Made by a program: the position numbers and the translations under genes. A stretch of DNA of 64,000 nucleotides, counting the filler, from Jimgerdemannia flammicorona (lineage: Eukaryota): the NCBI GenBank assembly GCA_003990765.1. It is 3 parts of 3 records of this genome, joined end to end, with 100 filler letters (N's around TTAATTAATTAA, not from the genome) between each part and the next. Parts side by side here need not be neighbours in the genome. Positions count along the whole stretch, not along the records: positions 1 to 21,485 come from RBNJ01001440.1; 2 more parts are not named here. One strand, written 5' to 3'. This document shows, piece after piece, positions 1-40,121 of this stretch. Positions within the stretch are counted from its first letter, which is position 1. The number at the start of each line of letters is the position of its first letter. The notes beneath the pieces were generated by a model, which was not told the DNA's origin, did not search any database, and saw only the letters and a list, made by a program, of their open reading frames with translations.

Positions 1-241
1 TTAAGGGCTTTCAAATGACACCAAGATCATCAAATTTGGATGATTATTCATCAAGTTATTGATGTAAACATTTAATTGTCTAATTTGGAAATCAAAACAA
101 TGGTTGATTCGAATCCGATTCGAATCCGATTCGAATCCGATTCGAATCCATCCGGATGGGATTTGAATCCGATTCGAATCTGATTCGAATCCAATTCGAA
201 TCCATCCGAATCCCATCCGGATTGACTCGTTCGGAGCACTA
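1..241 (-). mobile_element. Terminus of a probable hAT-type DNA transposon inserted in the gypsy-1 integrase
   Basis: The gypsy-1 integrase frame (..DCLIKTMVAESTTTN) stops at 242. The minus strand then starts TAGTGCTCCGAACGAGTC, followed by near-palindromic GAATCCGATTC subterminal repeats. CpGs are retained, unlike in the flank. The other end lies outside the window. Confidence 0.5.
106..225. repeat. Tandem 11-bp near-palindromic repeats (GAATCCGATTC)n in two blocks
   Basis: Directly visible: gattcgaatcc repeated about 7-8 times, with interspersed CATCCGGAT motifs. Confidence 0.9.
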
Positions 242-2649
242 TTGGTAGTAGTTGATTCAGCAACCATAGTCTTGATCAGGCAGTTAATAAATATAATGAT
301 AGCATCAGTACCAGATTGAGTTCATGGTAGTTGAGTTACAAAGTTCATGGTGACTTGCTCGAACTTCTTGGTAGAAATTAGCAGTGGTTGTAGCAAACCA
401 GTAGATGCTTAGTTGGTAGACTTGTTGTGCTGACATAGATTATAGCTGGCAACATAGTTCTTGATTTTCTTGACCATATTTGGCCAATAGTAGCGATGTT
501 GGATGTTCTTGACAGTCTTCCCAATTCCCAGGTAACTGGCAAGAGGAGAGTCATGGTGTTCTTGCAAAACCTTATAGCATAGGTTTATGTTTTCAAGTAG
601 ATAGACTTGATCTTGATGATAGATCAGGTTGTTCTCGACAGTATATGTATCCTTGAGTTCATTCAAGAAAACTCTAATGGCAACTGTGTTTTCTTTGTAA
701 GCTTGCCTGATTTGGTCTAGGAATTCTGATGCCAAGGTGACTTGCATGATTGTGATGAGATCTGGGCACCTTAATAAGGCATCTGGTACTACAAGTGTCT
801 TGCTGGACTTGTAGATGATTGTTGGATTGAAGGTTTGAGGCTTGAGGCTCTACTTGGCTTGTAGATATGACAGAGTAGGTTGGGTGTTGATATACTTGAG
901 AGATTGATAATCAGTAATGACATCAAACTCAATATCTTCTAGATAGCATCACCAGTGGTCTAGTGCATGTATTATTGCTAGTAGTTCCTTCTTGTGAGTA
1001 GCTAGCTTTTGTTCAGCTGGGGCTAGCTTGCAGGACTCAAAAGCAATCAGGTAATGTCCTTTGTCATCATCTTGTGACAGGACTGCTCCAATGGCAAAAT
1101 TTGATGCATCAGTAGTGACTATGAATTTTAGGCCTTGATCTACATTATACAGAACTGGGGCATGAGTCAGGCAGTTCTTGAGTTCTTGAAAGACTTGTTG
1201 ACAGAAGAGATCCCAGGTGTAGGGTACATAGTGGTCTGAGTGTGGGGCCTTCCTTATGAGATTAGCCAGTGGCTCAGTAATGCCAGAGAAGTTTCTGACA
1301 AAGTGGTGGTAATAGCCAGCTAGATTAAGAAAGGATCAGAGTTCAACAGAATAGGCCATTCTTTAATTACTTCTATCTTATATGGGTCTACTTGAATTCC
1401 TTGTGTAGAGATAATATGGCCAAGGTATTTGACTTATTTCTTGAAGAATTCACACTTCTTGAGCTTGGCATAAAGCTTGTGTTTTCACAGGATCTCTAGG
1501 ACTATTCAAATGTATTTGAGGTATTCTTCTTTAGTTGTACTAAAGATCAGAATGTCATCAAGATATACCAACAGGAAAATAAATAGTTGGTCCTTGAATA
1601 TAGAGTCTGGAATATGGTGGGTGCATTGATGAGACCAAATGCTAAGACCAGGAATTCATAGAGTCCAAAGGGGGTCATGAATACAGTTTTGAGAATGTCT
1701 TCTGGCTTGATTCGAATCTGGTGGTATCCTGACATGAGATCTAACTTGGTGAAGTACTTGGCATTCTTGAGAGTATCAAAGATTTGATCAATCAAGGGTA
1801 ATGGATAGCAGTTCTTGACAGTGAGTTTGTTGAGTGCATGATAGTTTATGTACATTTGCAGGGTACCATCCTTCTTCTTAACAAATAAGACTGGTGAGCC
1901 ATAAGGAGATTTGCTTGGCTGGATGGCTCCTTGTGCAAGTAGTTCTTCTAGTTTCTTCTTGACTACTTCAATTTTGAGTGGTGACATATAGTACATATAT
2001 TTCTTGGGTAGTACAGCTCCTAGGGTCAGTTCAATTTCATGATCAACTTCTCATATAGGTGGTAGGCCAGATAGCTTGTCTGAAAAGACATCCTTGAATT
2101 TCTCTAGTAATAGCTTGATACTTTCATTAACTGATAGTCTCTTGTCTTATTTCTTGGGGTGGATCATTACAATAAAGGCATGCATTGTCTTCTTGAGTGC
2201 TTTCTTATACTGTATGGCTGACAGTATTGCAATTTGGATCTTGCTCATGGTCTTGTCTGTCTTGGTCATGATGTTGGCTCTATTTTGAAGTAGGGTGACT
2301 TTATTCTTGCACCAATCAATGTCTGGATTGTGTTTTGTAAGCCAGAGTTTTTCTAAGATCAGATCATGATCTCTTAGTGATACAACCTCAAAGTCTACTC
2401 ATTCACAATATTTCTAGATCTTGATGGGCAATTTGGTGGCAATTGACTTGATGGGGTGTAAAGTACCATCTGCAGTAACTATACTATTGTTCTTGGGTTC
2501 AGGCTTGGTGAGGATTTTGAGGTTTTCAATAAGATTCTGATTGATGTAGTTCTCTATAGCTCTGCTATCTATGAGTACTTGAACTTCTTTTCCTTTGACT
2601 AGGCCTTGAAAATGAGTATAACTTGAGCTCAATTTTCACTAAGACTTGC

Positions 2650-3055
2650 TGCTTGATCAGTGCTGCTAAAACCCTTTTGATCTTATTTGGTTTTAGAGAG
2701 TTCTTGAACTTCTGTAATCTTGAGTTGACTGGCTTTTTCCAGGATCATTTGCATGACTCAGTCTCCTTCTTTAACTGTGTAGTCTTGATCCTTCTGGTTA
2801 ACAAGTAAGACTTGAACTTGTCTTCAAAAGTCTGGGTCAATGACACTAGTGCCTATATCTAAATGATGTTTGATACTGAGTCTTGATCATGGTGCAATTC
2901 TAGCATAATGTCTTTCAGGACATTGGACTACAATTCCAGTAGGTACCAGAGTATGTCCCTTGGCTGAAATAGTGACTTATTTGACTGAGTATAGGTCTTC
3001 TGTTTGATATTGAGGGACCTGGGCCTTCAGATGAAGCTTCTTGATCTTGAGCTCA
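2650..3055 (-). pseudogene. dUTPase domain of gypsy-1, between gag and protease
   Basis: Manual translation: LKIKKLHLKAQVPQYQTE-DLYS..LVPTGIVVQCPERHYARIAP*SRLSIKHHLDIGTSVIDPDF*RQVQVLLVN..VKEGD*VMQMILE..TK*DQKGFSSTD. Trimeric dUTPase motifs 2-5 are recognisable, and the stops fit CGA/CAA to TGA/TAA changes. Confidence 0.88.
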
Positions 3056-4104
3056 AGTTGACTTGTAGTGAGATTGATGGGTGTGTCCTTGGACAATATG
3101 GTGACTGGTCTTGAGGGTTTGCTAGTCTTCCTAGGACATTTGGTTGCAATGTGTCCTATTTGGTGACAGAAGAAACAAGCTCCAGATTTCTTCAGATAGT
3201 CCTTTTCTTCAGGGGTGAGCTTGGTATTCTTTTTTTTTCATAGTGTCTAAGTCTATTGGTGCTGGGCCAACTGTCCTTGGTTGGTTTCTGTGGCAGTTCT
3301 TGAAGTGGTTCTTTTTGTGGTGTTCTGGTTCAAAGCAGTTACCAAAGATGATGATATCAAATCTATCAGATTCTCATGGCTTCATTAAGAGTTTTGGGTT
3401 CTTCTAGCTTGACCTTGACTTATGTATTTCCCTTCAGACCTCAGATATAGTAGTCTATCTTTTTATCCTCAGATACTGCTGGTAGCTCAAGTAGGATTGA
3501 TAAGAATTATACATTATAGCTTTGCATAGACTTGAGTTACTTGATGATTGCTAGCTTATCTCTGGCTAGCTTGGTGGCATTAGCAGGCTTGAACTACTTG
3601 TGAAGGGCTCTCTTGAAAGCTTCCCAATCTCTAATTTATACATATGAGTGTACAGATGTAACCATGATATGATTGTACCACCAGATAGCTATATTTCCTA
3701 AGAGAAGTGTGGTGGCAAATTGAACTTGCATATCATCTTCCATTCTTGTGAGCTTGAAGTATTGATCCAATTGGAAGGTACATGCATCGGTAGATAGTCC
3801 TTCTCAATGGCTGTCAAAGGTATCTGGCTTGAGTGGCTTGAAACTGACTGGCACTATGACAGGATGTGATGTTCCTGTAGTTTGTGATTTCTGGTGTTCT
3901 AGTTGTGCTTAAAGTTCTTGAATTTGGTGGGTCATGGCATTGATCATATCTTCTATATTGAGCTGCAATCCTCCTGTTTCTTCTGTAGCAGAGGGGTTTG
4001 GCTGGTAGACTGTCTCTTCATGGCTCATTTTGGGTTCATGTGAATAGTTGTGACTGGTTTCCGAATTTGTGTGAGGTTTCTTAATAAGGCAAGGTGTAAT
4101 GACA

Positions 4105-4116
4105 CCACTGCTACCA
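4105..4116 (-). promoter_or_regulatory. Primer binding site of gypsy-1 (TGGTAGCAGTGG, tRNA-iMet-like)
   Basis: Lies 2 nt after the LTR end (..ATTACA). TGGTAGC is complementary to the 3' end of initiator tRNA-Met. Confidence 0.6.
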
Positions 4117-4118
4117 AG

Positions 4119-4583
4119 TGTAATGGTTCTAGTTTCTTTAAGAGAAAGTAGCTAAATCTGAAAGTTCTGGTTGGCCTAAAGTAGCTTGAAGAGATACTTA
4201 AAGATTCAAGTATTCTCAAAGGATTTCTGAGAGAAAATATTCTGAGCTTTATTCAGGCAGAGAACAAGGATATTTATATATGATCTAAAAGAAAGATCTG
4301 GAAGGATCTTGGAAAGAAAGAGAAATGCCAAGAAATAGATTCTCAGCAAAGCTGACTAATACTATTCTACAATGTTCCAAAAGGTTCCATAACTAGCTGA
4401 GATAAGATACTTGGTACTAAGGAAAGACAAGAATGTTCTAGTGGTATCTAGGTACTGAGAGAAGGTTTCTAAGCAAGTAGAAAGTACCAGAACATAGTAG
4501 AATGTTTAAGAAATGATAAGAAAAGACTGACTAAAAGATGTAAAAAATATACTAAGACTAAATATGACTGTGAAATTGTTACA
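4119..4583 (-). repeat. 5' LTR of gypsy-1 (~465 bp)
   Basis: Minus strand begins TGTAACA at 4583 and ends ..TTACA at 4119, followed by the PBS. Copia RT sequence resumes directly at 4584. Confidence 0.7.
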
Positions 4584-5435
4584 TTAGCAAAGTAAGCTTG
4601 AATATTAGAAAAAATATCTTGATATAGTCTATACTATAATATTATAAATAACTGTTAGCAATAAAATAAGCTTTATACTATTCTATACTTTTATTACTCC
4701 TATGCTTAATTTTAAATCTAATGAGATTCTATAGCTTGTTAATTGACCAGAAGAGGTATTAGATCTTATGTATTATTCTTGATAAGTAAATTATATTCTT
4801 CATCTATAACTTATTTCTATCTCTTATTTTTAGAGAAATTTATTGCTTTATTATATATACTGGGCTTACTAAAAGTTACAATAAATATATATTTATATAT
4901 CTTATTATAGCTTACATAGTCTTTATAAGAGATCTTTAGTATATCTCAATAACTCTCTAAATCAGAATGAGTTTCATAATGAATATTGGAGCATTTTTAA
5001 TTACTCTTTATAGAGGATCTCCCATCACTAGAGTGTTTATTGTTATTTTCATCTTTGATTTTTATTATTCTTGGCTTAGATATGTATAGAAATTTTGCTT
5101 TATTGAAGAGATTACCACTGGTTACTATATTTATATTAACTAAGATATAGAGATTATAACTGATATATCTATATAGATCTCTGAGCCTTTTTCTCTAAAC
5201 TATATATTCTGTAAGATTACTATATAATATTATATAGATTCCACAATCTATATAACTTTCTGTTATATTTGAGAAATATGTACTTATCTATCTTAGACTC
5301 AAATTTATACTAATTTCTCCTTTCTTCAAAGTATAGACCTTATATTTCAATATATATAAATATGAAATGTCTGATTTAGATCTGCTCTATAATTCTTTAG
5401 AAGTAAGATCATGATTATTTCTAAATTGTATATTG
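4584..5435 (-). mobile_element. Highly mutated Ty1/copia relic (integrase C-terminal SH3 to start of RT)
   Basis: Minus-strand translation through stops: SKSDISYLYILKYKVY..KFESKIDKYIFLKY..YRLW (copia SH3), and KPSIYNKA..VIDEEYNLLIKNNT*DLIPL..YKAYFIANSYL*YYSIDY, matching EP.TY.EA..AM.EE..SL..N.TW.L..YKAR.VAKGYSQ.YGIDY. Confidence 0.8.
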
Positions 5436-5856
5436 TTTATTTTATTTTATTTTATTTTATTTTATTTTTTTATTTATTTTTTTTTTTTTACAGTTACTTA
5501 GACTTTTGTATTTATTATCAATCTAATCTATATAATAACCTGACCACTTACTCAATTCTCTTAGAGAGCCTCTCTTTTTTCTACCTTATTATACATATTA
5601 GAATACTAATAGATTATTAATAACTACAATTCTTTTACTACTTTTTCACAAATACTCTCTATTAGATAGTGATAGCAACTACCCTAAGAGCTCCACCCCC
5701 TCTATCAGTCAGACATAATATCTACTACCAATCTCTCCCATTATACTATTTGCTCCTCTAACCTTATCTGCTAGCTATTCTCAAATACATATAATCAATG
5801 TCTAGCAAAACTCATACAACCTATGTCTAACTAACTATGAGTTACTTATTATCTAT
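5436..5856 (-). mobile_element. LINE-A 3' end with poly(A) tail (older relative of LINE-B)
   Basis: Poly-T/(TTTTA)n at 5436-5489, with AATAAA just upstream on the minus strand. The C-rich plus strand continues across the gypsy-2 insertion at 20413. Confidence 0.7.
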
Positions 5857-6096
5857 TGTAATGGTGACCCCAGAATGATGACATCAGCACAGGAGACAGC
5901 CTTTCCTTGCAAGCCACTATATCGGAGCACAAGAAGATTATATGGCATATGAGATGAGCAATAATGACTAACTGTGAGTCATTGTGACCACCACAAGCAT
6001 CCTGAAAAATATAAAAGAAGGATCAAGGAACCGCAGTAGCAGCAACCAATAAGAACCACCAATCCCAAAATAGCTCAAAGACTTATCACAAATGAA

Positions 6097-6929
6097 ATGC
6101 CTGCTACCTGCCAAACCTCAAGGTCAAGGAATCACCAAGGTATCTCAGTTGAGGAAAGGATGTTCCAAGACATCAGAAGAGCCATGGAGACCTGCTCAAG
6201 AAGGACTCCTAGTGTCAACCTGGGTACTGCAGACCCTTACCACTTTATTCTCTACTGCTGCAAAATGGAAACAAGGATCACCATTACTACTGAATGCCTC
6301 CAAATGTGGCAGGAGTACGAAATAGGAAATCTCCTCTGCTGGGAGTTCCCAGAGGCCAGCACCCAAAAGCTATAAGATGCTACTCCCATGGATATACATG
6401 AAACAAGGACAGCTAAGAAGATCCATCAGATCTTCAGGCATGCACCATGGTCGATCCCCAACTTGGAGTATGTTAGAGTCTCAGACTTCAGAGACCTGTC
6501 ATCCTGCCAAGTCAATGCACTAGAAGCCAGGGTAGGGTGGCTACAGAAGCCCAGTCCACTATCACTCTCAACAGTGAAGAAGTAGAAGACTTCTGGCACC
6601 CTATCCTTCAGGACAACCCAGATCAATTCCTGCAAGGATTGATCTCAGTATTCCAAGGCCCAAGCATCTGGGTTAGATCTCCACAAGACCCCACATTTGT
6701 TCCTTATTTTGTAGAAGAGAATCTCATAGACTGGAGAGCTCCAGACCTTGTCCCCGATTTCCCTGCCACAGCCGAATGTGATGACATCATCGATGATGTC
6801 ATCCTGTGTGACATACCTGAAGCACGCGAAGTATGCGAAACGTATGACCTATATAGCAAATTCACGGATCTCATCTCCTTCAGTGATGATGATGATGAAG
6901 CCCCCATGATCCTGAACTTTCTGCTCTAA
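6097..6929 (+). pseudogene. LTR-encoded ORF, 5' LTR copy (disrupted by a TAA at 6373 and a 5-nt duplication near 6530)
   Basis: ORF pieces 6097-6375, 6388-6585 and 6537-6929 align with 19133-19960. A TATAAAAG lies at 6010. Confidence 0.75.
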
Positions 6930-7101
6930 GTTCTTTGTTATACTGGATAATGCCAGCACTGGTATCCTGAGGTGACGCGAAATTGTTCCAGCACTAGCAT
7001 TTTGATGTAACACTAAATAATGCCAGCCCTGGAACTTAGTAGTTTTAGTTATTGGAATTTATATTTAGCTTTATATCTTAGCAACTATTGAATTATATTT
7101 T

Positions 7102-7136
7102 TATATAAATACCCCTCTTATTTCCTCTGAAATAAA
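7102..7136 (+). promoter_or_regulatory. Probable main LTR TATA box (TATATAAATA) and poly(A) signal (AATAAA)
   Basis: Typical arrangement ~240 bp before the LTR end; conserved in the 3' LTR (~20170-20202). Confidence 0.5.
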
Positions 7137-7345
7137 GTCAGTTCTTCTCAGTGCAATACACACTTCCTTGTAAGCAATTTAAGAGATAACAAGACAGTTT
7201 AAAGATAAGAAGTTTGAGGACTATAAGACCTTGGGAAGGCACTCCAATAAGAACTTGCTTATAACAAACTTGAGTTAGTCTAAGAGATATACCTTGAAGA
7301 GAATCTGGCATATTTGAAGGACTCAGCGACCACTATGTGACAACT

Positions 7346-7366
7346 TGGTGCCCATTGGCTGGTAAT
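7346..7366 (+). promoter_or_regulatory. Primer binding site of gypsy-2 (TGGTGCCCATTGGCTGGTAAT)
   Basis: Lies 3 nt after the LTR end and starts TGG. It resembles the complement of tRNA-Gly(GCC) (TGGTGCATTGGCCGGGAAT) with 2 extra nt. Confidence 0.55.
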
Positions 7367-9262
7367 TCAAGACGAATCTCTCACTTACAAGCTGAAAAAT
7401 GAACAACTCCCACAACATCTACCCTGACTACAAGATTCACTCCTGCAAGAATTCAAGACAAGATGGAAATGCGTCCCCCCACATTCTATGGATATACTAC
7501 TGAAGAGTCAATCCTGACCTTCATTGAAGACTTTGAACAATTTACTGCCATATGAGCCCTTGGTGTAGATGCTCAATTGGCCCTTCTACCAGTCAGCCTT
7601 AGAGGACCTGCCAGAGACAAGTTCAATGCAGCCACCATTGCTGATGCTGGTGCAGCCAAACTTGCCAACATGAAGGTCTTCCTTAGAACAACATATTATA
7701 CTGAAGAGATCAAGCAAGCTCTCAAGGATCAACTCAATACTATCTGCCAAGGACTTAGTGAAGATCCCAACTCATTCTATACCTGAATTTGCCACCAGAT
7801 TGTCTTGGCTAGCTATGATGACCACCTCAAGGAACAAATAGCGGATTCAAACTTCCTCAAAGGAGTTCACTCTGAAATTGCCCTAGCAATCAGATCTACC
7901 CCAGCTGCACTGACCCTTGATCAGAAAGTGGTCTTTGCACAGAGATATTGGACTACCAGACACCCTGCCAAACACCCAATGGAGAAAATAACTGGCATTA
8001 AGATGGAGCCATCAAAGCTAACTAGTATCTTACCTGCCACAGTTGTAAACAGACAACCAACCCCACCTACCCCCAAGACAGCCAAAGCTGACCCAGTGGA
8101 GGAACTTGCCAAGCAGTTTGCTGAAATGACTGCACACCTTGGTGATGTTGTTAGAGAAGTCCGAAGCACCAACAGGAGACCAGTGCAGAGATTTGCAGCT
8201 ACTACAGAAGAATGCAATATCACATGCTTCAGATGTGGAGAAGAAGGCCACTATGCAAAGAGTTGCATGACCAAAACAATATGCAAAGCCCAACCAAGCA
8301 ATGCTAGCAGAACCAGAGAACAAATCAATGCAGTAGTCATTGAGGAGATTGGTGACACCGATGATGAAGAATACTATGAAGAGCTCGAATTCTACCCTAC
8401 TACTGAAGGTACCAGAACCCAGTCCAAGCCCTATGATAAGAAGAGCAACAGCAAGCCAGTTGGAAGACCAAAGAAGACCCCAGCTGTCACTATTCAAAGC
8501 AAGACCCAACCCAAGGAGATTGATCAAGACATGGAGTTAGATGAAGCTGCCTGCCAAATCATTAAAGGCACTACTCCAGTCTCAGGAGAAAGTGAAAGCA
8601 AGAAGGAACAGAAGCTGTGCAAGACTAAGATCCATCAGTATGATATCTACAAGGATCTCAAGGAACAGAAGGTCAATGCCACTTTTGGACAGCTAGCTGA
8701 AGTCCCTGCCTTCAGACAGCAGTTGAGAGTAGGACTTGCAACTACTGCCAAGAATCAAGAGTACAAGATTGTAGAAGCTCACAATGCACAGAAAGAATCC
8801 GAGAACTCAGGTGAAGAATCTGAAGACTAGCATAAGACATCAGCCTATACCCCCTGCCAGATTGAAGACTATATCTTTGATGCCATCATTGATACTAGTG
8901 CTGGAGGATACCTCATAAGCAAGAAGGCAATTGACCACCTAGGTTGGGATATTGAAGAGTCCACTAAGATGGTCTATGTCACAGCAGATGGTACATGAGC
9001 TACCTCCCTTGGTAAAATCCAAGAAGTCCCCATCAAGATAGGAGGAGCTACCATTCCAGTAGATGTGATTGTTATAAGCGCCACCAACTATAACATCCTC
9101 ATTGACAACCAATGGCTTCACAAGGCCAAGGCCATCATTGACCTCAATGCCGATCAACTACAGAGGAAGAAAGGTATGAGTCTCTATCAATGTCCACAAA
9201 GGAGTCCTACCAGACATAGAGAAAAGAGATGAAGAAGACACAGAGGTCTTCATGCACTCAGT

Positions 9263-9305
9263 GAACAAGAACAAGAACAAGAACAAGAACAAGAACAAGA
9301 ATAAG
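9263..9305 (+). repeat. (AACAAG)n microsatellite inside gypsy-2 pol, encoding NK repeats
   Basis: About 7 hexamer units visible. Confidence 0.9.
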
Positions 9306-9559
9306 ACACCCAAGCTCACAGATGAGCAGTGGTACAACAAGGTCATTGATAGCTATGCTCCTCAAGGAAGATGTCCCCATGGTACTAGAATGTACTGCTC
9401 TGAACACCTGAATGACTACTGGTCCTATATCAGTGAAGTCAGGAAAATCTGCCAACAGAAATATAAGCAAGAAGCTGCCAAAGCAAAAAGGAAAGCCAAA
9501 GAAGATGACCAGCCCCCAGAGCTTCAAGCTGACAGCAATGATGAGAAGGAATAAGAATC

Positions 9560-9930
9560 AGACATCACCCTCAAGGTCAAGAAGTTTCACCCTGAAGCCA
9601 AGATCCCAGAATACAAGAACAGACCACCACCCTACTTGGCACTGGAATTGGAGTTAAGTTACCAGAAAACCATGCTGGAATTATCAAGACTAGGAGCAGT
9701 CTGGCCAAAAGCGAAATCTCAGTTGAAGGAGGAGTAATTGACCCTGATTACACTGGTGAGATTTTCCTCATAGTCAGAAATCACAACCACACCACCCCTT
9801 TCGAAGTCAAGAAGCATGACAGGATTGGCCAGATGCTGATCTATGAAGTCAAGAAGCACAAGATCATAGAAGCCATCGAACTCATCAAGACCAAGAGAGG
9901 AGAACAAGGCTTTGGATCTACTGGAAGAGG
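9560..9930 (+). pseudogene. dUTPase domain of gypsy-2, between protease and RT
   Basis: ITLKVKKFHPEAKIPEYK / TTLLGTGIGVKLPENHAGIIKTRSSLAKSEISVEGGVIDPDYTGEI..KKHDRIGQMLI..TKRGEQGFGSTG. Motifs 2-5 are intact and in frame with RT; motif 1 is deleted with a frameshift at ~9620. Confidence 0.93.
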
Positions 9931-11350
9931 AGCCTATGCTGCCACCAAGATTACCAAACTTGAGTACAAGAAAGACAAGGACCAGAAAAAGCACACATAT
10001 ACCATTGGAGAAAACTTTCCCCTTGAGAAACAACTTCTCAAGATCCTGTACCAGAATGAAGGAGTACTTGCTACAGACTTTAGAGATATCCACAATCAAG
10101 AACCCAAGTACTACTATGAAGTTGACACCAGTGATACCAAGCCTATCTACCAGAAAGCCAGACCCATACCACCTGCCTACAGAGAGTGGCTGCAAGCAGA
10201 ACTCAAGGAAATGGAAGAAGCTGGAATCATCAAGCAAGCTATCAGCCCCTGGGCCTCACCCATTGTTCTAGCCCCAAAGAAAGGAAGCAAGTCTGGAGAG
10301 TTTGCACCAAGACTCTGCATTGACTACAGGAAACTCAATGCCATTACCAAGAAGGATAGGCAGCCCTTGCCAAATATTCAAGAAATCCTTACCACCCTTG
10401 GAAGTGAAGCCAAATACTACACTACCTTGGATCTGTTCTCAGGCTTCCATCAGATTGGTCTCACTCAAGATACCAGTGAGAAATCAGCCTTCATCATACC
10501 TGTGCCACCTATATCTACTTGTGAATGTCATTTGAAATGTGCAATGCCCCAGCAAGTTTCCAGAAAATGATGAACAGAGTCTTCAGCAACAAAATTGGAA
10601 AATGGCTCTTTGTCAATGTTGATGATGTGATCATCTTCAGCAACACAGCACAGGAACATGTCAATCACATCCAGCTAGCCCTCAAGAGGCTCAAGGAGCA
10701 TGGCCTCTACATCAAGCCCAAGAAATGTAAGTTTGCAGCTCAGGAAATTGCCTATCTAGGACACCTCATCAATCAGACCGGAATCCACACAGACCCCATG
10801 AAGATTGAGGCTATTGCAACCTACCCAAGACCAAGAACAACCATAGAAGTTTATGCCTTCCTTAGACTGGCCAGCTACTATAGGAGATTCATCAAAGGAT
10901 ACTCCAACATTATAGCTCCTATCTATGAGCTACTGAAGAAGGAGACCAAATTCGAATGGACCAAGGAGTGCCAAGAAATCTTCAATGAACTCAAGACCAG
11001 GTTGATCCAAGCACCCATCCTCAGAAGACCAGACTGGAACCTAGAATTCATCCTGCAAACAGATGCGAGTGCTATAGGACTTAGAGCAGTCCTAGCTCAG
11101 AAGAAAGATGGACATGAATATGTCATCTCCTATGCAAGCTGAGGTACCCACGGAGCAGAACAGAACTACAAGTCATGCAAGCTTGAATGCTTAGCAGTAG
11201 TCTGGGCAGACAAGTTCAACTACTACCTAGCTGGGAAATACTTCACCATTCAAACAGACCATTCTGCAGCATTTTCTCTGGTAATATTCAGGTTACACAA
11301 CCCTTTGGCAACACTTTCAATACAGTTTCTAGAGAAAAGCTACTAGTATT

Positions 11351-13381
11351 ATGGCGACCAATGAGCATCCGGAGGTGCATACTGAGCAGGGTGGCCCTGG
11401 AGCATTTGAATAGCAGCAAGTGGGGAGAGGCCCCGGCTTGGAGGGAAGTGTGAGGGGCCTGCTGGTAGGGGGCCATGGTGGAGGAGGGGGCAGAGCTAGA
11501 GGTCAAGGGTCTGGCAGGGTGAGCTTTGTGGAGAAAGTGAAGGGGGGTCGGCAGGGAGCTGGACTGGAGAGCTGGCTGAGAGGGGGGAAGGTACCAGTGG
11601 TGGCTTCTAGGCAGCAACCTCTTGGGGGTACCTCTCTAGTGGGCCATAGGAGTGGAGCTGGGGGGGTAGCGGCTGGGGCAGAGACTGCTGATAGGGGTGT
11701 GACAGATGATCTGAAAAAAAATCTAGATGGGACTGCTGATGGTGAGCCAAGTGGTGGGAAGGGCATGAGGCCCGGGGACCTGGCGGATGGTGTAACAGGA
11801 CTAGCAGTGGCTCTGTTACTCAAGAAGTTGATCTCGGCATTCACAGTCACGCTGTGTTTCCGGGGCTTAGCAGTGATGGCAAAAATGGTATTGGGGCTTA
11901 TCGCTAAGCAGGTGGTGGGAGCAGCTTCGGTGAAGTTCCTGAAGGGACTGGAAGGGGTGGAGGTGGGATTTGAGGAGGTTGAACTGCTGGAGGAGGCGCT
12001 GAAGGTTGGGTTGGTGGTTGGGGAGGTGTGTGTTCCAATGGCGAGATGTCTGAAATGGGATCCGAGGGTGGTCCAATTGCTGGTGAAGGGAGTACCCACG
12101 GTGACGGCGATGGAGACGAGGAAGAGAGTGGAGGATGTCATGGCGGAGTATGGAGAGGTGGTGGATATTGGGTTCAGGGTCTGGGAAGGGACTACGCTCA
12201 GGACTGGGGATGTGGATGTGAGAATTTGGCTGGCTGGGAAAGAGGCTACTGGGAAGACGAGGGACTGGCCTTCAGTGTTGGTCTGGGGAGCTTTCCTGTG
12301 CAAGGTGACATGGGTGAAAGGAAGTGAAGAAGAGGAGGAGGATTTATTGGAAGTGCTAGTGGAGCTGGATGGGGCTGTGGAATGGTGAGCTAAGGCCTGG
12401 AAGACTTTCAAGGAGTCGACACTCCTGGAGGTGGTGGATGGAAAGAGGATTCAAGTAGACAAGGTGCAGTGGGAAAGAGCTCAGGGGCAGAAGAGGCAGA
12501 AGGATCTGCTGGCTAAGCTGGGGGGTGGACCACAGAAGGATGCGAGCATGAGGCTAGATGCAGAAGGGGCTGGAGCGAGTGTCTGGGCTGGTGAGAGGAG
12601 TGGGAATGATGGGGCAAAGTCAGGGAAGGCTAAGGAGGCGAAGATTAGTGACCTATATGCTGATGGCACCTTGGAGGTTTGGGATGAAGTCTGGGAGAAT
12701 TCCCCCACCCCTTCCCCTCTTATCAGGCATGGCCCGGCCTCCAGGAATAAGTCTGGGGAGGACGTGACAATGCTGGAGACCCTGTAGGTGAAATTCAGCA
12801 TTCCAGAGGTATTGGATGGGGACCAAGTAGTGGCAGCAGAGGAAGAGGAACTGGTGGATGTCCCGGAGGTATGGGATGAGGACGCGAGTGCAGGAGCTAA
12901 TACCACAATGCTGGATGGTAGGAGGCCGGCGACCCCTGGTGGAAAGGAGGTAGGGAACCTACTTTGGATGTGCCGAATGATGAATAACCTGGTGGCAGAA
13001 GAGATGGGGGAGGTGGACTTGTGTGGGATGGGTGACGAGCACTGGATGAGAATTTTGCAGGGGAAAGGAGTGGCGATGGTGCTGAAGGCAGAAATTCTCG
13101 CGGTGTATCTGGAGGAGAAAGGATATGAGGTGGATAAGGAGAGGGAGGTGGAGTTGGCAGTGGTCACTGGGGAGAAGGCTGAGTACTGTTGGAACAGACA
13201 TCATGGATTGCAGCTTTGGCAGGAGGCTTGCATCGAGTACCAAGAGGAGTTTGAGGAGAAGGCTGATGAGGAGATGAATGAGCTGTTGGCTGGACTGGAG
13301 GCTCAGAGGGCTGAAGAGGATGAGGTGATGGCTGAACATAATCTGGACATGGCACAGGAGGAGAGGGGCATGGAACAGTAG
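11351..13381 (+). pseudogene. LINE-B ORF1 (RRM-like region, acidic C-terminus), with in-frame stops
   Basis: ORF pieces 11420-12388, 12431-12787 and 12788-13381 share one frame with the ATG at 11351. VKGVP..YGEVVDI..RTGD is typical of LINE ORF1. Confidence 0.75.
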
Positions 13382-13411
13382 GGATTGATTGAGAATAAAC
13401 CGTATTTTACT

Positions 13412-16400
13412 ATGAACAGTATAACCAACATTTTTTCTTTGAATGTGAATGGGCTGAGGGGCACGGTTTGATGCAGGAACATTTTTATTTGGTTGAAGGG
13501 ATTGGAGGCCAATCTCTTTCTCTTGCAGGATGTCAGGTGCGAGGATGATGCTGATAGGATGGAATGGACTAAGAAATGGGGTGGTATGGCAACTTGGAAC
13601 AGCAAGGTCGGGATTCTGGTTCGGAAAGGCAGAGGAGAGATAAAGGATGTGAGGAGCTGGGGGGAGAGACTGGTCTGGGGTGAGTGGATTCGTGCAGGTT
13701 GGGAGCCGGTCACCATTGGCTCCTGTTACTGCCCTACTATGTGGGGAGAGCATGTGGATTGGGTGAAAGGGCTCCTGGAGAGTGGGATCCTTGCTGAAGC
13801 TGGATTGGATATGCTTGGAGGAGATTTCAATATGGTTCGGGATGTACAGCTGGATAGAACTGATGGAGGACGGGGTGCGGAGAGCAGGAGTGGGGGGTTA
13901 GCGATGTGGGAGGAGGTTGAATAGCTAGAAGCACTGGTGGATGCTGGTAGGGAGCACTGGGGGGACAGGAGGGTATACATATACGCATTGGGCTGGAGGT
14001 CTGGGGACAAGGATTGACTGGATTCTGACAGCCGACTGTTGGGGCTGTGATGTTTGGAAGGTGGTAGAGGTAGAATGGTATCCATGGTTGGATCACTGGG
14101 GCCTCTTGGGACAGGGGTGTTTTGGGGGAAGTAGGGATGGGCCTGGATATTGGCACCTAAATTCCTCCTTATTGGATGATGAGGCCCGGTGGGAGGAGTG
14201 GGCGAAAGACATTCAGCTGAAGGTGGTGAATTGGTGGCAGGAAGGGGCCACGATTGGGGTTTGGTAGATGAGAATGAAAGAGATGGCCAGGATGTATTGG
14301 AGCAAGGCTGGCAGAGTGGCTGGGAAGCAGTGAAGGCAGAAAGTGTGTTGGGCTTCTACTAGATTGGCTAGGCTCCTGAAGGAGTGGGCAAGACTGGTGG
14401 CAGTGGAGGGAGAAGAGGATTGGAGAATAATGAGGATGAGGATGGAGGTGGGGGAACTGCAACAGGTGCTGCGGGAAGAGGAAGAGTCAAGGGTGCAAGG
14501 CCTGGTGGCACGGCTTCATTGGCAGGAGCTGGAGGAAGGGGAGAGGCCTTCCAAGTTTCTCACAAGGACACTTCGAGCAAGAAGGGCACAGCAGTGGTGG
14601 GAAGGGGTACTTGGCTCAGATGATATACTAGTACATGGTGTACAGGACATCCTTGGAACACTGAAGGCACAATGGAGTGGATTGTGGAGTGAGGAGGAGG
14701 GTGGGGTGGATGCTACAGCCATTGACCAAACATTAGAAGATTGGCACCCGCCACAAGCTGAGGGACTAGGTGACCTGGTGATGTCTGTAAAGGAGGACAA
14801 GATCTATCAGGTTCTTGCTGCAACAGCCTTGGGTACAGCGCCTGGGGAGGATGGCCTCCCTTGGGACTTCTGGAAGTAAATGGTTGGAGTCCCAGACATA
14901 TTGGGGGAGTTGACAGCACTGTGTGACTCTATATTGCAGTCAGGGAGATGGGTGGGAGAGCAAGACCTTGGGCTAGTGACACTGCTTTATAAGAACAAGG
15001 GAAGGTGAGAGGATTGGAAGAACTGGCAGCCAATAATGTTGCTAGATATGGACAGGAAGTTGGTGACTAAGGTGGTGGACACAAGGCTACAGAAGGTAGC
15101 CCAGCAAATTGTGGGTGTTGAGCAGAGGGGCTTCATAGGGGGTTGGCTTATTAGAGATGGCATGGCCTGGGTACATGGAGTTATTGAAGGTGCTCAAGCC
15201 TGTGGACTAGATGGGCATCTTGTCTTCTTGGATCAGGAGAAGGCTTATGACCGGGTGTGGCGAGTCTGGCTGGCGAAAGTATTAGATAGAATTGGAGTTC
15301 TGGGCCCATTTCGGTTGGCAATGGTCAGCCTACTGGAAAGGAGTAGGGCTGCGCTCATGTGCAATGGGCACAGAGGGGTGGCTTTCCCTCTGGGTAGGGG
15401 AGTGCCCCAGGGGGACCCACTGTCCCCCATTTTGTATACTCTTTCCTTGGAACCTCTGATGGACAGGATTCAGCAGAAGATTGTGGGGCTCTCTATCTAT
15501 GGCATTGGCTGGAAGGTTGGAGCCTTTGCAGATGACATGGTGGTTGGTTTGGAAGTGACTGCGGATGTCAAGGAGCTCCAGAAGACAGTGGAGTGGTATG
15601 AGGAGAACTCTGGGGCGAAGCTGAATTGGCACAAGTGTGAAACAATGGTACTGGGCAATGGCTTGGTGGGTGGAGAAGTTATTGGAACAATTGTCCCCAC
15701 CGGAGAGGCAGTGTGGTACTTGGGCATCTATTTGTCAGTCTATGGGTCTGTTTTGTCCAGGCTGTGGTGGGAGCAGAGGATTGGAATTTGGGAGGAGGAC
15801 CTGCAGGGTTGGGGGGGTCGACACTTCTCTCTGGTAGGAAGGATCTCGATTTTGAATGTATACTGGCTGCCAAAGCTGTGGTATTTGGCCTATCATCTGG
15901 ACTTCCCAGCCTAGGTAGTGAGGAGATTGGTGAAGGTGGCCAAGGGATGGATTTGGGCTGGCAGACAAAGTCAGATTGGTTGGGAGACTTTGTCTCTACT
16001 GGGGCGAGAGGTGGTCTTGAGCTGGTGGACTTCCCCAAATGCCTACACTACTTGAGGGCTTGGTGGCTGAGGAGGGCAGTGGAGTTGCATGGAGGGGGCT
16101 GGGTCCCCCTGCTGCAGAAGATATGGGAGAGGCAGACATTACCTAGAGGCTTGACTAGTGATCTTCTTTCATTGGTTGGGCTTCAGAACACTGCACAATT
16201 GAGATATAAAGGCTTCTGGTGGGGGATAGCCAAGGGGGCACACCACATTGGTATTTGCTGGCAAGGGGATGAGGGGGAGAGGGCTTGGGACCCGGCAATG
16301 TGGAGATGAGATAGCATTCTTCTGGAGGGCATGCCTTTACTGGAGTTCAACATTAGTGATGGCATCAAATGCCAAAGGGGTCCAGGCCAGGATCTGTGGC

Positions 16401-17060
16401 CTAGTGGTTGGCAAGGAGTTGGAATTGGTGAGGAGTGGGACTGGCATGGGGTTTGGACCTGGAGTGCTACAGTGAAAAATTAGATACCGCCGAAGTACTG
16501 GGTAGTCTGGTGGCATATACTGAGGAGAAATGTGATGCTTAACTTCTGCTCAGGACACCTTGTTGTAGGGGGCTGCTTTGACTGTGAGGAGTGCCATAAT
16601 GTTGAGCAGGAAGGGAGATTGATACAGATGCCGGAACATTGGCTAGGGGAGTGTGAGGTGTTGAGAGACTTTTGGCAGGCCATTGGGGACTGCTTGGGGG
16701 TAAGGCGTAGGGGTGATGATGTACAGGGGAGGTGGGAGGACCTGAGGGATCAATTGATAGGAGGGGTTGGGGAAGAGTGGATTACTCTAGACTGGGTGTT
16801 GGCTATTTGGGTTGGGCTGGCCGGATACTGGCTATTTGTATTTGAGGAGGAGAAGTAACTGAGCTTGGGGAGCCAGTTAGCAAGGTGGCAGTTCCTTATG
16901 GAGGATACCTTGACAGGCTGGTAGCTTGATTGGGAGCTGCAGGGGGGTCAGAGGTGCCACTTGGTGGTGAAAATCTGTGGGCAGAGTGGTGGGAGAGTTA
17001 GAGTTATTGGTGAGAGGGTGGTCTTTATACATGACGAGGTGGGGTGGGGCCACCCGGTGG
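13412..17060 (+). pseudogene. LINE-B ORF2 (AP endonuclease, RT, C-terminal Cys/His), with stops and frameshifts
   Basis: SLNVNGL, LLQD, GGDFN, RIDWIL, DH; APGEDGLP; FLDQEKAYDRV, GVPQGDPLSPILY, FADD; CFDCEEC..EHWLGEC. The 3' end coordinate is approximate. Confidence 0.92.
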
Positions 17061-17162
17061 GGATCGGATAGTTGGTGGTGATATTGTATACTTATTCATA
17101 GACTGGTAATAAAGATGGATTCCAAGAGACTAAAAAAAAAAAAAAAAAACAGACCATTCTAC

Positions 17163-18535
17163 TCTTGCCTAGCTATTCCACACTCTGCACCCCAAAGGAA
17201 TATATGCCAGATGGATCTACAGGCTGCAAGAGTATGACTGTACTGTCAAGCACCACTTAGGAAAGACCAATACCAATACCGATGCACTCTCAAGGACATC
17301 CTGAAACACCCCCATCAAGACTATTCAACATAAATAAGGAGCTATACTATGGATTAATCAGCTATCTTGGGCAGTGGAAGATGCCCAACTACCTCGAACC
17401 CTGGACAATCACCATCATCAACCGGACTTGGAAACAGTTTGAATTAGACAACACTACACTCAGAAAAGGAGGAAAGCTAGTAATACCCGAATACAAGAAG
17501 TATCAAGTAATGAAGGAAGTACATGAGCAAGGACACTTAGAAGGAACCAACACATATGACAAGGCAAGAAGAACCATGTAGTGGCCCAAGATGGAAGAAG
17601 ACCTATGCCAATTTGTCAAAGGGTGTGACAAGTGCCAAAAACAGAAATAAGATCAGCAAGACCAGGCACCCAGGTCATCAAGAATTGAGCCTATCTCCTT
17701 CCACCACATTACAATGGATATCATTGGACCACTACCAGTAACACTATCAGGAAACCGCTATATTATAGTTATTATAGACCTCTTCACCAAATGGATAGAG
17801 GCAGGAGCATTACAAGAAGCCAATGCCCTCTCTATAGCTGACTTCCTGCACCGAGAAATCATCTGCCGCTACAAGACACCAAAGCAAATCACAACAGACC
17901 ACGGAACAGAATTTGTCAATGGATTCCATGAGATAATGTATCAGAAATACAAGATCCAGCACATCAAGACCACCATGTACCACTCTCAAGGAAATAGACA
18001 GACAGAGAGAACCAACAAGACCCTCAAGAACATCCTAGCAAAGATCTCAGAGACATATGAGAATTGGGATAACTATCTCCCAACTGCCCTCTCTGTCCTA
18101 TGAGACATATGGTCACAGAGCACACATTTTACCCCAAGAGAGCTGCTCTTCGGAGAAGAAGATTCTGATGGAATCTCAGCTACAAATCTAGACCTAACTT
18201 GGAGATGGGTTGATGCAGAAATCTGGAGACTATACCAAATCAGGAAGAAGGCTGAAGATTACATCACCAAGTCACAAGCACTGACAAGGAAGAATGTGGA
18301 AAAGAATCACAAGGTCCTAGAACCCATCCGAATTGGAGAAAAGGTTCTACTGTATCGAAATATGGTAGAAGCCTCATGGTCATGAAAACTGGAGCCCAAA
18401 TGGAAAGGACCCTTCTATGTGCAAGATATCAAGAGAACTACCTTCTGGCTTAGAAAAATCTCAGGGACCATACTGCCTACTACAGTACATAGGAACAGAC
18501 TCAAGAAGAACCATGAATCTATACAAGAGAAGTAA
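17163..18535 (+). pseudogene. gypsy-2 RNase H end and integrase
   Basis: H..GH..C..C zinc finger, MDIIGPLP, IDLFTKW, TDHGTEF, YHSQGNRQTERTN, and KLEPKWKGPF (GPY/F motif). No chromodomain seen. Confidence 0.92.
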
Positions 18536-18890
18536 AACATGATGACCACCTGCAAGATTCTAGTCCACGAATTGTAACAGCATGTCCTGTGACCAGCAGG
18601 CTATCTGTCTGGACCATTCTCTAAGAGATACAGCACTGGCAACTACTCATCTGTGAGACTTTTGAAGTCAGAGGAGTTCAAACCATCAACTGATTGGTCA
18701 AGATCAGAATCAGGCCATTGCTCTATATGAAGGGAGCGACCCTTCACTATTATGCCAAAATACAAAGGGAAGACACCAGCCTATAAACACTAGTTTTCGA
18801 CCCCTTGCCAGAGGTAATGGGATCAGCAAATTTTTCAGGACTGGACCAATGAATAAGAATGCTCAGGAAGATCCTTATTCAGGAGAAAGA

Positions 18891-20408
18891 TATAACAGTG
18901 ACCCCAGAATGATGACATCAGCACAGGAGACAGCCTTTTATTGCAAGCCACCAGATCGGAGCACAAGAAGATTATACAGCATATGAGATGAGCAATGATG
19001 ACCAACTGTGAGTTATTGTGACCACAGCACAAGCATCCTGAAGAATATAAAAGAAGGATCAAGGAACTGCAGTAGCAGCAACCAACAAGAACCACTAATC
19101 CCAAAATAGCTCAAAGACTTATCACAAATGAAATGCCTGCTACCTGCCAAACCTCAAGGTCAAGAAATCACCAAGGTATCTCAGTCGAGGAAAGAATGTT
19201 CCAAGACATCAGAAGAGTCATGGGGACCTGCTCAAGAAGGACTCCTAGTGTTAACCTGGGTACTGCAGACCCTTACCACTTTATTCTCTACTGTCATGAA
19301 ATGGAAACAAGGATCACCATTGCTACCAAATGCCTCCAAATGTGGCAGGAGTATGAAATAGGAAATCTCCTCTGCCGGGAGTTCCCAGAGGCCAGCACCC
19401 AAGAGCTACAAGATGTCACTTCCATGGATATATGCGAAACAAGGACAGCTAAGAAGATCCATCAGATCTTCAGGCATGCACCATGGTTGATCCCTAACTT
19501 AGAGTATGTTAGAGTCTCAGACTTCAGAGATCTATTATCCTGCTGAGTCAATGTACTAGAAGCCAGGGTGGCTACAGAAGCCCAGTCCACTATCACCCTC
19601 AACAGTGAAGAAGTAGAAGACTTCTGGCACCCTATCCTTCAGGACAACCCAGATCAATTCCTGCAAGGATTGATCTCAGTATTCCATGGCCCAAGCATCC
19701 GGATTAGATCTCTACAAGACCCCACATTTGTTCCTTATTTTGTAGAAAAGAACCTCATAGACTGGAGAGCTCCAGACCTTGTCCCTGATTTCTCTGCCAC
19801 AGCCAAATATGATGACATCATCGATGACATCATCCCGCATGACATACCTGAAGCACATGAAGTATGCAAAACGTGTGACCTACATAACGAATTCATGGAT
19901 CTCATCTCCTTCAGTAATGATAATGATGAAGCCCCCATGATCCTGAACTTTCTGCTCTAAGTTCTTTGTTACACTGGATAATGCCAGCACCAGTATTCTC
20001 ATGTAATACTGGATAATGCCAGCACTGGTATTCTGAGGTGACACGAAATTGTTCCAGGACCAGCATTTTGATGTGACACTAAATAATGCCAGCCTTGGAA
20101 CTTAGTAGTTTTAGTTATTGGAATTTATATTTAGCTTTATATCTTAGCAACCATTGAATTATATTTTTGTATAAATACCCCTCTTATTTTCTCTGAAATA
20201 AAGTCAGTTCTTCTCAGTGCAATACACACTTCCTTGCAAGCAATCTAAGAGATAACAAGACAGTTTAAAGATAAGAAGTTTGAGGACTATAAGACCTTGG
20301 AAAGGTACTCCAATAAGAACTTGCTTATAACAAACTTGAGTTAGTCTAAGAGATATACCTTGAAGAGAATCTGGTATATTTGAAGGACTCAGTGACCACT
20401 ACATAACA
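18891..20408 (+). repeat. 3' LTR of gypsy-2 (1518 bp)
   Basis: Colinear with the 5' LTR. The 32-bp length difference equals +35 (extra repeat unit) +2 -5 indels. Confidence 0.95.
19133..19960 (+). pseudogene. LTR-encoded ORF, 3' LTR copy (275 codons, single TGA at 19544)
   Basis: 19133-19546 and 19568-19960 are in the same frame, separated by one TGA where the 5' LTR has CAA (ancestral CGA inferred). Confidence 0.8.
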
Positions 20409-21485: not shown

Positions 21486-21585
21486 NNNNNNNNNNNNNNN
21501 NNNNNNNNNNNNNNNNNNNNNNNNNNNNNTTAATTAATTAANNNNNNNNNNNNNNNNNNNNNNNNNNNNNNNNNNNNNNNNNNNN
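21486..21585. other. Assembly gap with TTAATTAATTAA linker
   Basis: N run with an embedded all-frame stop linker. Confidence 0.98.
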
Positions 21586-34408: not shown

Positions 34409-34819
34409 TGTCCAGGGGTAGAAAGGAGTGGATGAAGGGAAGGAATGAAGAGCGGATGGGTCATGTTTATTGTTTTTATGATGCAAAACGGTGGCAAATG
34501 TCTCAGTATATACATCAACATCAACAACGAGCCGCAGTCATGTCTCAGAACCAACCACTAATTAGTCGAAATTGCATTGCACCGCGTCACGGACGATGTA
34601 ATTACGTGGGAATGGAATATATCCACATATATCCGCGGGAACAACTCCCAAGGGATAGTAGCCATCCAGTTATATACATATTCAGCGAAGTTTATTAAAA
34701 AAGTATATACCTTATGGCCTATCTGGATTGGTACCTTTTGACCCTATTCCCCCAGTCCCCCAGTCCCTCCCCCAGTCCCTCCCCCAGTCACGTCATTCCT
34801 CTTGCTCACAGAACATACC

Positions 34820-36511: not shown

Positions 36512-36998
36512 TCGTACGTTTGGGCGGGGGTGGTATGTGTAGTGGTTACAGATAGAGTCGCTGGATGGCAGGCGAGGGTGTGGTGTGGTGTTTTTATCAT
36601 CCCCTAAGTTATGATTGACGAGCATGCTTTTGATTGCCATGTTTCTTTTCCTGGTTTGGGACATGCATTACTCTCCCACAATGGTAGAACGCGTCAAATT
36701 TCCATCTCTCATACTGTACAATTTGTGGCTAATGATGGCTAACGGCCCTCTTGACTATTGATGGCCAATGTACACGCCTTGCCGAGCATTGTTCTTAGTC
36801 CTTTTTGTCCTGCCTTTTTTTTACCTTGCGTTTCTCCTTATAATTTTGTAAGGCATTGCTCCGTTTCGTCTTGCCTTGTCTTGTTCCTTTTCGTCCTGAG
36901 ATACTATAAAAATCCTCTCCCCAATGACTCTTCTTTCTGCTCATCAAACATTCTTTGTCGCTGGCACAGCAGCGTCCACCCATCTCTATAACGTCAAT

Positions 36999-39451: not shown

Positions 39452-40121
39452 ATCGTACGTTTGGGGTGCCCACACGTGTGGTGGGTACGGATAGAGTTGC
39501 TGGATGGAAGTCGAGGGCGTGGTGTGGCGTTTTAAGTTGTAGAGTTACTATGGGGTTTCCATGACTATTGGAACAAGCAAAATCGATCGACATGTCTTTG
39601 ATTACGATGTCATTTGTTCAAGACGGGTTTACATGATAGTTTTGACCATTGGAGGTCCTTTGCAAGATGTTTCTTTTCCTGGTTTAAGACATACATTGAA
39701 TATTCCCACAATGATAGAACGCGTCAAATTTCCACCTCCCATACTACTGTACTACTTTATTCTAACCAATAACAAGTTGAGCATGAACGCAATTTGCCTG
39801 GAGTTGCAACAAAGCGAAGGCCCACCCCCCTCGCTCGCTCTCCTTCCCAAATGGAAAAGAAAAAAGATCAGACGGAGAAGGTGCCAACAATGCCTCGGTT
39901 TTCTTTTTCTCATTTTACGTTCGTTTTTTACTGTCGTACGAGAACTCCATCAAAAAAATATATGCAAACTATTTTGGAGCTTGGAACCCGGTGCCAGACA
40001 TACGATTCACACAACCCCACCATATTTTGAATCACCCTGACCCGCAGCACAGCACCACCATTCTCGCCGTCATCATTCCTGCCAAAACCCCTGTATATGT
40101 CAAACTATACTCACCCGATCT

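Follow-up and report, generated by a model that had tools for sequence, protein, structure and literature searches.

Long terminal repeats (LTRs) are as a rule regarded as promoter and terminator modules without coding function, and the annotation of transposable elements masks them. The locus described here raises the question of whether an LTR, a location uncommon for retrotransposon genes, can carry a protein-coding gene of its own. It lies in a stretch of 64,000 nucleotides (filler included) of Jimgerdemannia flammicorona (assembly GCA_003990765.1), called the window from here on, in which a Ty3/gypsy retrotransposon shows the same open reading frame (ORF) of 275 codons in both of its LTRs, each copy being decayed. 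It seems fairly probable that a Ty3/gypsy lineage carries a genuine accessory gene situated wholly in the U3 (unique 3′) region of its LTRs, and that this gene would be expressed from a cassette contained in the LTR itself. Sequence comparison shows that the LTR ORF is conserved, codes for a protein under selection and belongs to a small orphan family. The features of the two LTRs on which this proposal depends are the following; L001 is a related contig and R is the region that follows U3.

5857–7342, + strand: 5′ LTR, 1486 nt, TGTAAT...GTGACA, with CTAT before it
6010–6017, + strand: TATA1 of the 5′ LTR, TATAAAAG, 87 nt ahead of the ORF ATG and kept in L001
6097–6929, + strand: 5′ copy of the ORF, with a TAA at 6373–6375 and an extra GGGTA at 6530–6534
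7102–7136, + strand: TATA2 of the 5′ LTR, TATATAAATACCCCTC, with AATAAA at 7131; putative boundary between U3 and R, and shared poly(A) signal
18891–20408, + strand: 3′ LTR, 1518 nt, with CTAT after it
19046–19053, + strand: TATA1 of the 3′ LTR, TATAAAAG
19133–19960, + strand: 3′ copy of the ORF, 275 codons plus stop, with a single internal TGA at 19544–19546
20170–20202, + strand: TATA2 of the 3′ LTR, with AATAAA at 20197

The initial annotation of this DNA had reported one ORF in both LTRs, broken at different places: a CAA-to-TAA change at 6373 and a 5-nt GGGTA duplication near 6530 in the 5′ copy, and one TGA at 19544 in the 3′ copy, where the 5′ copy has CAA. It had also noted a TATA box of its own about 85 nt upstream and a second TATA/AATAAA set downstream, and had supposed that the ORF was intact at insertion. 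Alignment and translation bear out all of these points, the first TATA box being 87 nt before the ATG in both LTRs and the second set lying at 7102 and 7131 in the 5′ LTR and at 20170 and 20197 in the 3′ LTR. The TAA of the 5′ copy is CAA in the 3′ copy, and the TGA of the 3′ copy corresponds to the CAA at 6508–6510; at this latter site, codon 138, all four of the close relatives that align there have Arg, so that TGA stands in for an Arg codon. The three defects are each private to one LTR, which means that insertion took place with the frame still open; moreover, P0003, an intact related protein of 271 amino acids, aligns colinearly with the 3′ copy over the full length. Both copies are thereby shown to have been intact at insertion. 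The stop-to-stop frame of the 3′ copy starts at 19076, inside the LTR that begins at 18891, and therefore the gene is no continuation of pol. The ORF is in the sense orientation and wholly within the LTR, which places it neither in the internal region nor on the antisense strand, and a tblastn comparison with the element's own gag and pol and with the rest of the window gave no similarity at E < 1. Its base composition (A 0.30–0.33, C 0.26, G 0.20) is near that of gag and pol (A 0.35–0.38) and unlike that of the C-rich host ORFs (A 0.22–0.25, C 0.30–0.38), which argues for a long residence in the element over a recent capture.

Relatives of the encoded protein were found by three kinds of search. 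The translation of the 3′ copy, with X at the internal stop (P0001), was matched by 6 of 338 candidate proteins at E ≤ 0.01; a word search with the family profile matched 12 of 3994 candidates, and five matches came from a library of 1.84 billion representatives searched with a profile. With the cluster members included, the family amounts to 29 database proteins, all of them from JGI or ENA metagenome-type sources and none named past "hypothetical protein"; the masking of LTRs in transposable-element annotation may be why these relatives are all metagenomic and unnamed. The alignment comprised 24 of the 29 (P0009, P0011, P0014, P0015 and P0017 were omitted as short or near-duplicate cluster members) and is composed of four subfamilies with 28–85% identity to the window protein, the frame being kept down to 28% identity. 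Seven of the 24 proteins, i.e., P0003, P0010, P0012, P0020, P0022, P0025 and P0029, are full-length and intact from a shared MP(A/P) start through an acidic C-terminal tail, with 271–342 amino acids. P0020 is encoded on a contig of 4.8 kb and P0027 on one of 19.4 kb. Among 65 pattern matches in viral contigs there was no member of the family. P0023 is visibly decayed in comparison with P0022, with many changes of Arg to Cys, His or Trp; several of the database proteins are decayed, and hence the metagenome set mixes live and dead copies. Serial changes of Arg to Cys, His or Trp are also seen when P0001 is aligned with P0002 and P0003.

One relative is available with its DNA, the single locus obtained in a scan of metagenome DNA: the contig L001, of 1345 nt, has an intact frame of 323 codons. 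The window ORF and the L001 ORF differ at 38% of the aligned nucleotides, with 97, 76 and 136 differences at the first, second and third codon positions (273 codons). Four estimators gave a dN of 0.36–0.42, a dS of 0.99–1.99 and a dN/dS ratio (omega) of 0.19–0.37, and an omega of 0.13–0.34 for the first 212 codons; dS is saturated, so that omega is approximate, although its direction is clear. When neutral evolution was simulated on the L001 frame, the frame was open in 2.6–5.0% of the simulations at 9% divergence, in 0.12% at 20%, and in none of 5000 at 30% as well as at 38%. The frame, with its four subfamilies, an omega below 1 and a composition like that of the element, is an additional conserved ORF belonging to the element.

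In contrast with this long-term conservation, the evolution of the two window copies since insertion has been neutral. The 5′ and 3′ LTRs are 91% identical by BLAST over the aligned part, and their differences include 87 substitutions, 83 transitions and only 4 transversions, many of them in CpA/TpG or CpG contexts. Within the ORF the differences amount to 22, 17 and 20 by codon position (20 synonymous and 39 non-synonymous), and this even spread indicates neutral decay after insertion. The window protein departs from its close relatives at 28 of 212 well-supported columns, and 23 of these 28 amino-acid changes are of the C-to-T or G-to-A type (R>C, R>H, A>V, E>K etc.). These data show that the window copies have decayed neutrally by C-to-T type transitions since insertion, and the extreme transition bias of the LTRs suggests a process similar to repeat-induced point mutation, or methylation-driven deamination, in the host.

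The predicted protein was compared with known families and folds. Pfam gave no family for P0001 at E ≤ 10 and nothing significant for 25 members, the best PDB sequence-profile match had an E of 0.38, and the ESM Atlas was uninformative (best feature score 0.83, with an Atlas model of pLDDT 0.35). The Pfam domain ATG5_HBR appeared in 3 of the 25 members with a best E of 0.028 and was treated as noise. A first AlphaFold2 (AF2) model with P0001 as target and 16 alignment rows reached a pLDDT of only 47.2 and for this reason was not used for fold searches. The AF2 model of the intact P0003, made with 25 rows, has a pLDDT of 59.8 and a pTM of 0.53; in this model residues 14–160 are predicted to be all-helical, with a helix of 37 residues, most of them at a pLDDT of 62–94 (residues 34–45 are below 50), and the tail is disordered. 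The fold searches with this model gave a best E of 1.2 with Foldseek against PDB, a best Z of 4.4 with VIA-align against 48,161 chains, and a best E of 0.16 in BFVD. The product can thus be described as an orphan, with a helical core predicted with moderate confidence and no structural match detectable in these searches. The view in the initial annotation that the protein belongs to no recognized family was upheld in Pfam, the PDB profile, the ESM Atlas and the fold searches, including the Foldseek comparison that it had proposed, carried out here on P0003 in place of the reconstructed protein. The dN/dS ratio that it had proposed to calculate comes out well below 1 between the window and L001, as expected under purifying selection; this value and the existence of 29 relatives argue against the neutral fragment limited to this copy that it had considered.

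No transmembrane or hydrophobic segment is present in the protein, the maximum 19-residue hydropathy being ≤ 1.07. The first 50 residues range from neutral to basic, with a net charge of 0 to +7, and the C-terminal tail has in five members a net charge of −12 to −26 with 26–37% of bulky hydrophobic residues, which is a likeness in composition only to an acidic activation region. This tail is studded with F, L, I and W, and in three subfamilies a conserved P-x-x-L-N-F motif is found at or near the C-terminus. The product would be intracellular and soluble, its basic N-terminus being followed by a helical core and then by an acidic tail studded with hydrophobic residues. A composition of this kind resembles that of acidic activation domains and of other tails that dock through short motifs. 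From this composition it was guessed that the protein acts in trans, as a regulator or adaptor; in its likeliest form it would be a transcriptional activator or adaptor that works on the LTR promoter through the acidic tail. That the protein is a trans-acting regulator serving the family is a tentative suggestion, drawn from composition only, and the odds are rather against it.

A silencing antagonist or a copy-number sensor can be guessed on an equal footing with the regulator. According to this alternative, which we consider just as tentative, the gene is real and its product is no transcriptional activator: it would antagonize host silencing, as the initial annotation had considered possible, or it would sense copy number or restrict the element itself, its dose following the number of LTRs. 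For copy-number self-restriction the comparison is p22 of Ty1. The decay described above, with 83 transitions among 87 substitutions and 23 of 28 amino-acid changes of the C-to-T type, is dominated by transitions and suggests that the host attacks repeats of this class; in addition, a cassette kept in solo LTRs would tie the dose of the protein to copy number. Nevertheless, the Pfam, PDB and fold searches revealed no similarity to a known silencing suppressor or restriction factor. If a selected gene is indeed situated in U3, it offers a compact cassette of about 1.1 kb with which the response of a fungal retrotransposon to the repeat defences of its host can be tested.

Whether the gene has a promoter of its own was addressed by comparing the flanks of the ORF in the window and in L001. 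Outside the ORF these sequences align poorly save for three short islands and some patches. The first island is GAATATAAAAG, 65–87 nt ahead of the ATG; the second is TGTATAAATACCCCTC, which is perfectly conserved (TATAAATACCCCTC in L001 too); and the third is the AATAAA 18–22 nt past TGTATAAATACCCCTC, followed by patches of U5-like sequence. TATA2 reads TATA(T)AAATA at 7102 and 20170. Both TATA boxes are conserved in L001, whose synonymous sites are saturated with respect to the window, and this conservation fits the idea of a separate promoter put forward in the initial annotation. A TATA box closely followed by AATAAA is the classic layout of an LTR with a short R. From this layout the U3/R boundary was placed near 7135 and 20200, and the ORF in U3; in the 3′ LTR the ORF (19133–19960) ends 210 nt ahead of TATA2 (20170), which is followed by AATAAA (20197), so that with the boundary inferred in this way it is contained in U3. 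The location of the ORF in U3 between conserved promoter and terminator signals is well supported, as far as comparison can tell, for this element and one relative. TATA1 would start an mRNA of about 1.1 kb that runs through the ORF and ends at the LTR's own poly(A) signal. Each LTR would then be a self-contained cassette, and both LTRs of an element, as well as any solo LTR, could express the protein without genomic RNA. If the U3 gene is selected, solo LTRs, which are the commonest remnants of these elements, could stay protein-expressing units. In the most far-reaching form of this proposal each LTR of the lineage, whether paired or solo, would function as an autonomous gene, with its own TATA box, an ORF of 270–340 codons and the LTR poly(A) signal, that encodes a regulator without detectable structural relative; the dose of this regulator would track LTR number, and it would activate the LTR promoter or blunt repeat-silencing. 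This form is possible, although we would not call it probable. If true, no U3-borne accessory gene with a promoter of its own would have been described before outside retroviruses.

The sequencing runs X1–X3 were used for contigs; none of the runs listed is recorded as RNA, which for X1 and X2 is a guess, and contigs cannot reveal transcript starts. In the three runs LTR-like sequence is present at high word depth and the host flank past 20457 is nearly absent. In X1 the integrase end (18000–18818) has a depth of about 0 versus 112–6368 for the LTR, and in X2 the reverse is seen. This contrast might reflect LTR-only transcripts or, equally, related families with other interiors, and no conclusion was drawn from it.

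A different possibility is that the ORF is real and has no promoter of its own, being the 3′-terminal gene of the genomic RNA, with a spliced or subgenomic RNA as the template for translation, as for sag of mouse mammary tumour virus (MMTV) and nef of human immunodeficiency virus (HIV); TATA1 would then be incidental or part of an enhancer. U3 stands at the 3′ end of each full-length RNA of an LTR element, as is well established, and one X1 contig enters the LTR upstream of TATA1 from other sequence, both of which agree with this model. However, GAATATAAAAG has been kept 65–87 nt ahead of the ATG in L001 in spite of saturated synonymous sites, and splicing to a subgenomic RNA would require a span of several kb, a length uncommon in fungi; no sign of splicing was found, although none was sought. 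We regard a gene without its own promoter as unlikely. Less likely still, and in our opinion improbable, is a long R, according to which TATA1 is the main LTR promoter, R has about 1.1 kb, the ORF is the first cistron ahead of gag, and TATA2 is secondary. TATA1 is conserved, and elements with two LTR TATA boxes such as BARE1 exist; nevertheless, an AATAAA lies about 1.1 kb past TATA1 inside the 5′ LTR, so that most TATA1 transcripts would end before gag, and TATA2 lies 22–27 nt upstream of this AATAAA, perfect over 16 nt, in the classic short-R arrangement. Finally, that the frame is a captured fragment of a host gene or a chance open frame carried as a passive passenger is very hard to credit: LTR elements do transduce host sequence and the two window copies do evolve neutrally, but four subfamilies hold the frame down to 28% identity with an omega of 0.19–0.37, none of 5000 neutral simulations is open at the observed divergence, the composition is like that of gag and pol and not of host genes, and no longer or fused homologue was found among 7757 candidates of 600–2000 amino acids, which is weak evidence.

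A gene situated in U3 and expressed from its own cassette is the reading that we prefer, and several points weigh against it. Regarding selection, the saturation of dS between the window and L001 makes omega rough, and gene callers list open frames only, which biases the protein set to intact copies. LTR context beyond the window is given by L001 alone, a contig of 1345 nt that has LTR-like flanks and no LTR pair. Regarding translation, an out-of-frame ATG that had been missed in the initial annotation lies 5 nt upstream of the ORF start in both LTRs (6092 and 19128). It was created, together with an overlapping frame of 77 codons, by a duplication of AAATG that is not present in L001, and it could damp translation in both window copies. 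Regarding transcription, the X1 contig mentioned above runs from unrelated upstream sequence into the first 160 nt of the LTR, upstream of TATA1; if X1 is RNA at all, this does not fit a simple transcript started at TATA1. As to function, the guess has composition as its sole basis, and no DNA-binding or activator homology was detected with Pfam, the PDB profile, Foldseek, VIA-align or BFVD.

Genes that reach into an LTR have been characterized in retroviruses. Foamy-virus tas/bet and the nef genes of HIV and simian immunodeficiency virus (SIV) lie at the 3′ end, overlap U3 and have accessory or regulatory roles, and Tas is an acidic transactivator under a separate internal promoter. These genes only overlap U3, their start lying upstream of the LTR, whereas the window frame begins inside the LTR; no similarity in sequence or fold to them was found in the PDB profile, Foldseek, VIA-align and BFVD searches. 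By position, the closest analogue is sag of MMTV, although the window protein is unrelated to Sag: Sag, which a vertebrate retrovirus encodes, is a membrane glycoprotein, and the window protein has no Pfam match at E ≤ 10 and no hydrophobic segment (19-residue hydropathy ≤ 1.07), which agrees neither with homology to Sag nor with a membrane-anchored glycoprotein. In contrast to MMTV, the window element belongs to Ty3/gypsy and has no env, and its ORF has a conserved TATA box directly upstream. As described in PMC2118998, MMTV sag is similar to the window gene in that it is an ORF of about 300 codons in the U3 of a long LTR (more than 1.2 kb), and hence is present in both LTRs.

Additional ORFs have also been reported in LTR retrotransposons. 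These include brtn, an antisense extra gene of the Boty-like elements of Botrytis (PMC8365987), as well as the extra ORFs of bdelloid rotifer elements and a demethylase domain in orchid Ty3/gypsy elements (PMC5408684, PMC9289625). They resemble the window ORF in being lineage-specific coding capacity past gag-pol; nevertheless, brtn is described as antisense and the others are internal or within pol, whereas the window ORF is in the sense orientation and inside the LTR. The legend to Figure 3 of PMC2864245 lists an "add. ORF" of unknown function, whose position is not given in the text at hand and which may be an earlier case of an LTR ORF; in the excerpt of PMC10787394, on the LTRs of crapaud, only gag and pol ORFs are shown. 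In the full-text literature that was searched, which leaves out most subscription journals, figures and supplements, ORFs in LTRs were found for MMTV and other retroviruses only, and none in a fungal LTR. If the present proposal is true, it would follow that "complex" regulatory genes can evolve in LTR retrotransposons beyond retroviruses as well.

The element that carries the ORF is a dead, structurally complete Ty3/gypsy LTR retrotransposon in a fungal-type host. Repeat finding, alignment and BLAST revealed paired direct LTRs around a gag-pol interior. The LTR termini are TG..CA (TGTAAT...GTGACA), and CTAT is found at both outer flanks as a target-site duplication, a 4-nt match in which the fifth base differs. 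A PBS-like sequence (PBS, primer-binding site) and a polypurine tract are both present, and the domain order reverse transcriptase, RNase H and integrase is that of gypsy elements (Pfam RVT_1 and RT_RNaseH_2 at 9596–11142, rve at 17651–18103). The interior features are:

7346–7358, + strand: PBS-like sequence TGGTGCCCATTGG, 3 nt past the 5′ LTR
7787–8830, + strand: gag frame with a CCHC zinc knuckle
9596–11142, + strand: first part of pol, divided by a frameshift into two frames, with dUTPase, reverse transcriptase and the beginning of RNase H
11200–17200 (approximate bounds), + strand: nested non-LTR insertion, similar to a long interspersed nuclear element (LINE-like), that splits pol; reverse transcriptase at 15009–15914, G-rich and unlike the gypsy frames
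17261–18385, + strand: second part of pol, the integrase region, with the rve core at 17651–18103, in several broken frames
18881–18890, + strand: polypurine tract AGGAGAAAGA, which adjoins the 3′ LTR

A search for tRNA genes in the window found none. The LINE-like element, of about 6 kb and with a G-rich sense strand and RVT_1 at 15009–15914, sits between the RNase H and the integrase of the gypsy pol, and it is because of this nested insertion that the element is 14.5 kb long. A search for tandem repeats in the LTR gave two 12-nt doublets and nothing else. The dUTPase domain is located at 9596–9925 (Pfam E 4e-21), immediately upstream of the gypsy reverse transcriptase. Fungal Ty3/gypsy elements that bear a dUTPase include PosPlaTy3 of Postia placenta and elements of Phanerochaete and Tuber (PMC2864245), and with the dUTPase ahead of the reverse transcriptase the window pol is like some of the basidiomycete elements in that paper.

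Elsewhere in the window there are long exons as well as a fragment of a GH18 chitinase, and for one host ORF the nearest Atlas clusters are eukaryotic, Ascomycota being the commonest among them; a fungal host is likely, though the placement in Mucoromycota finds no confirmation in these data. A second pair of direct repeats, 34845–36524 and 37764–39465, is 86–89% identical with about 2.9 kb from start to start, and has no ORF of at least 150 amino acids between the repeats; a small LTR element of the non-autonomous kind and a tandem duplication are both conceivable. At least 12 tandem repeats of 21 nt (7 codons) are found at 31668–32024, inside a host ORF of 965 codons with a UQ_con domain (31640–34537, minus strand). 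The stretches 21486–21585 and 43065–43164 are built alike, of 44 N, 12 bases and 44 N, and have the look of masked sequence more than of usual scaffold gaps. A reverse-transcriptase fragment at 1547–2050 on the minus strand (RVT_1, E 2.8e-14) is presumably a remnant of "gypsy-1" or of another retroelement.

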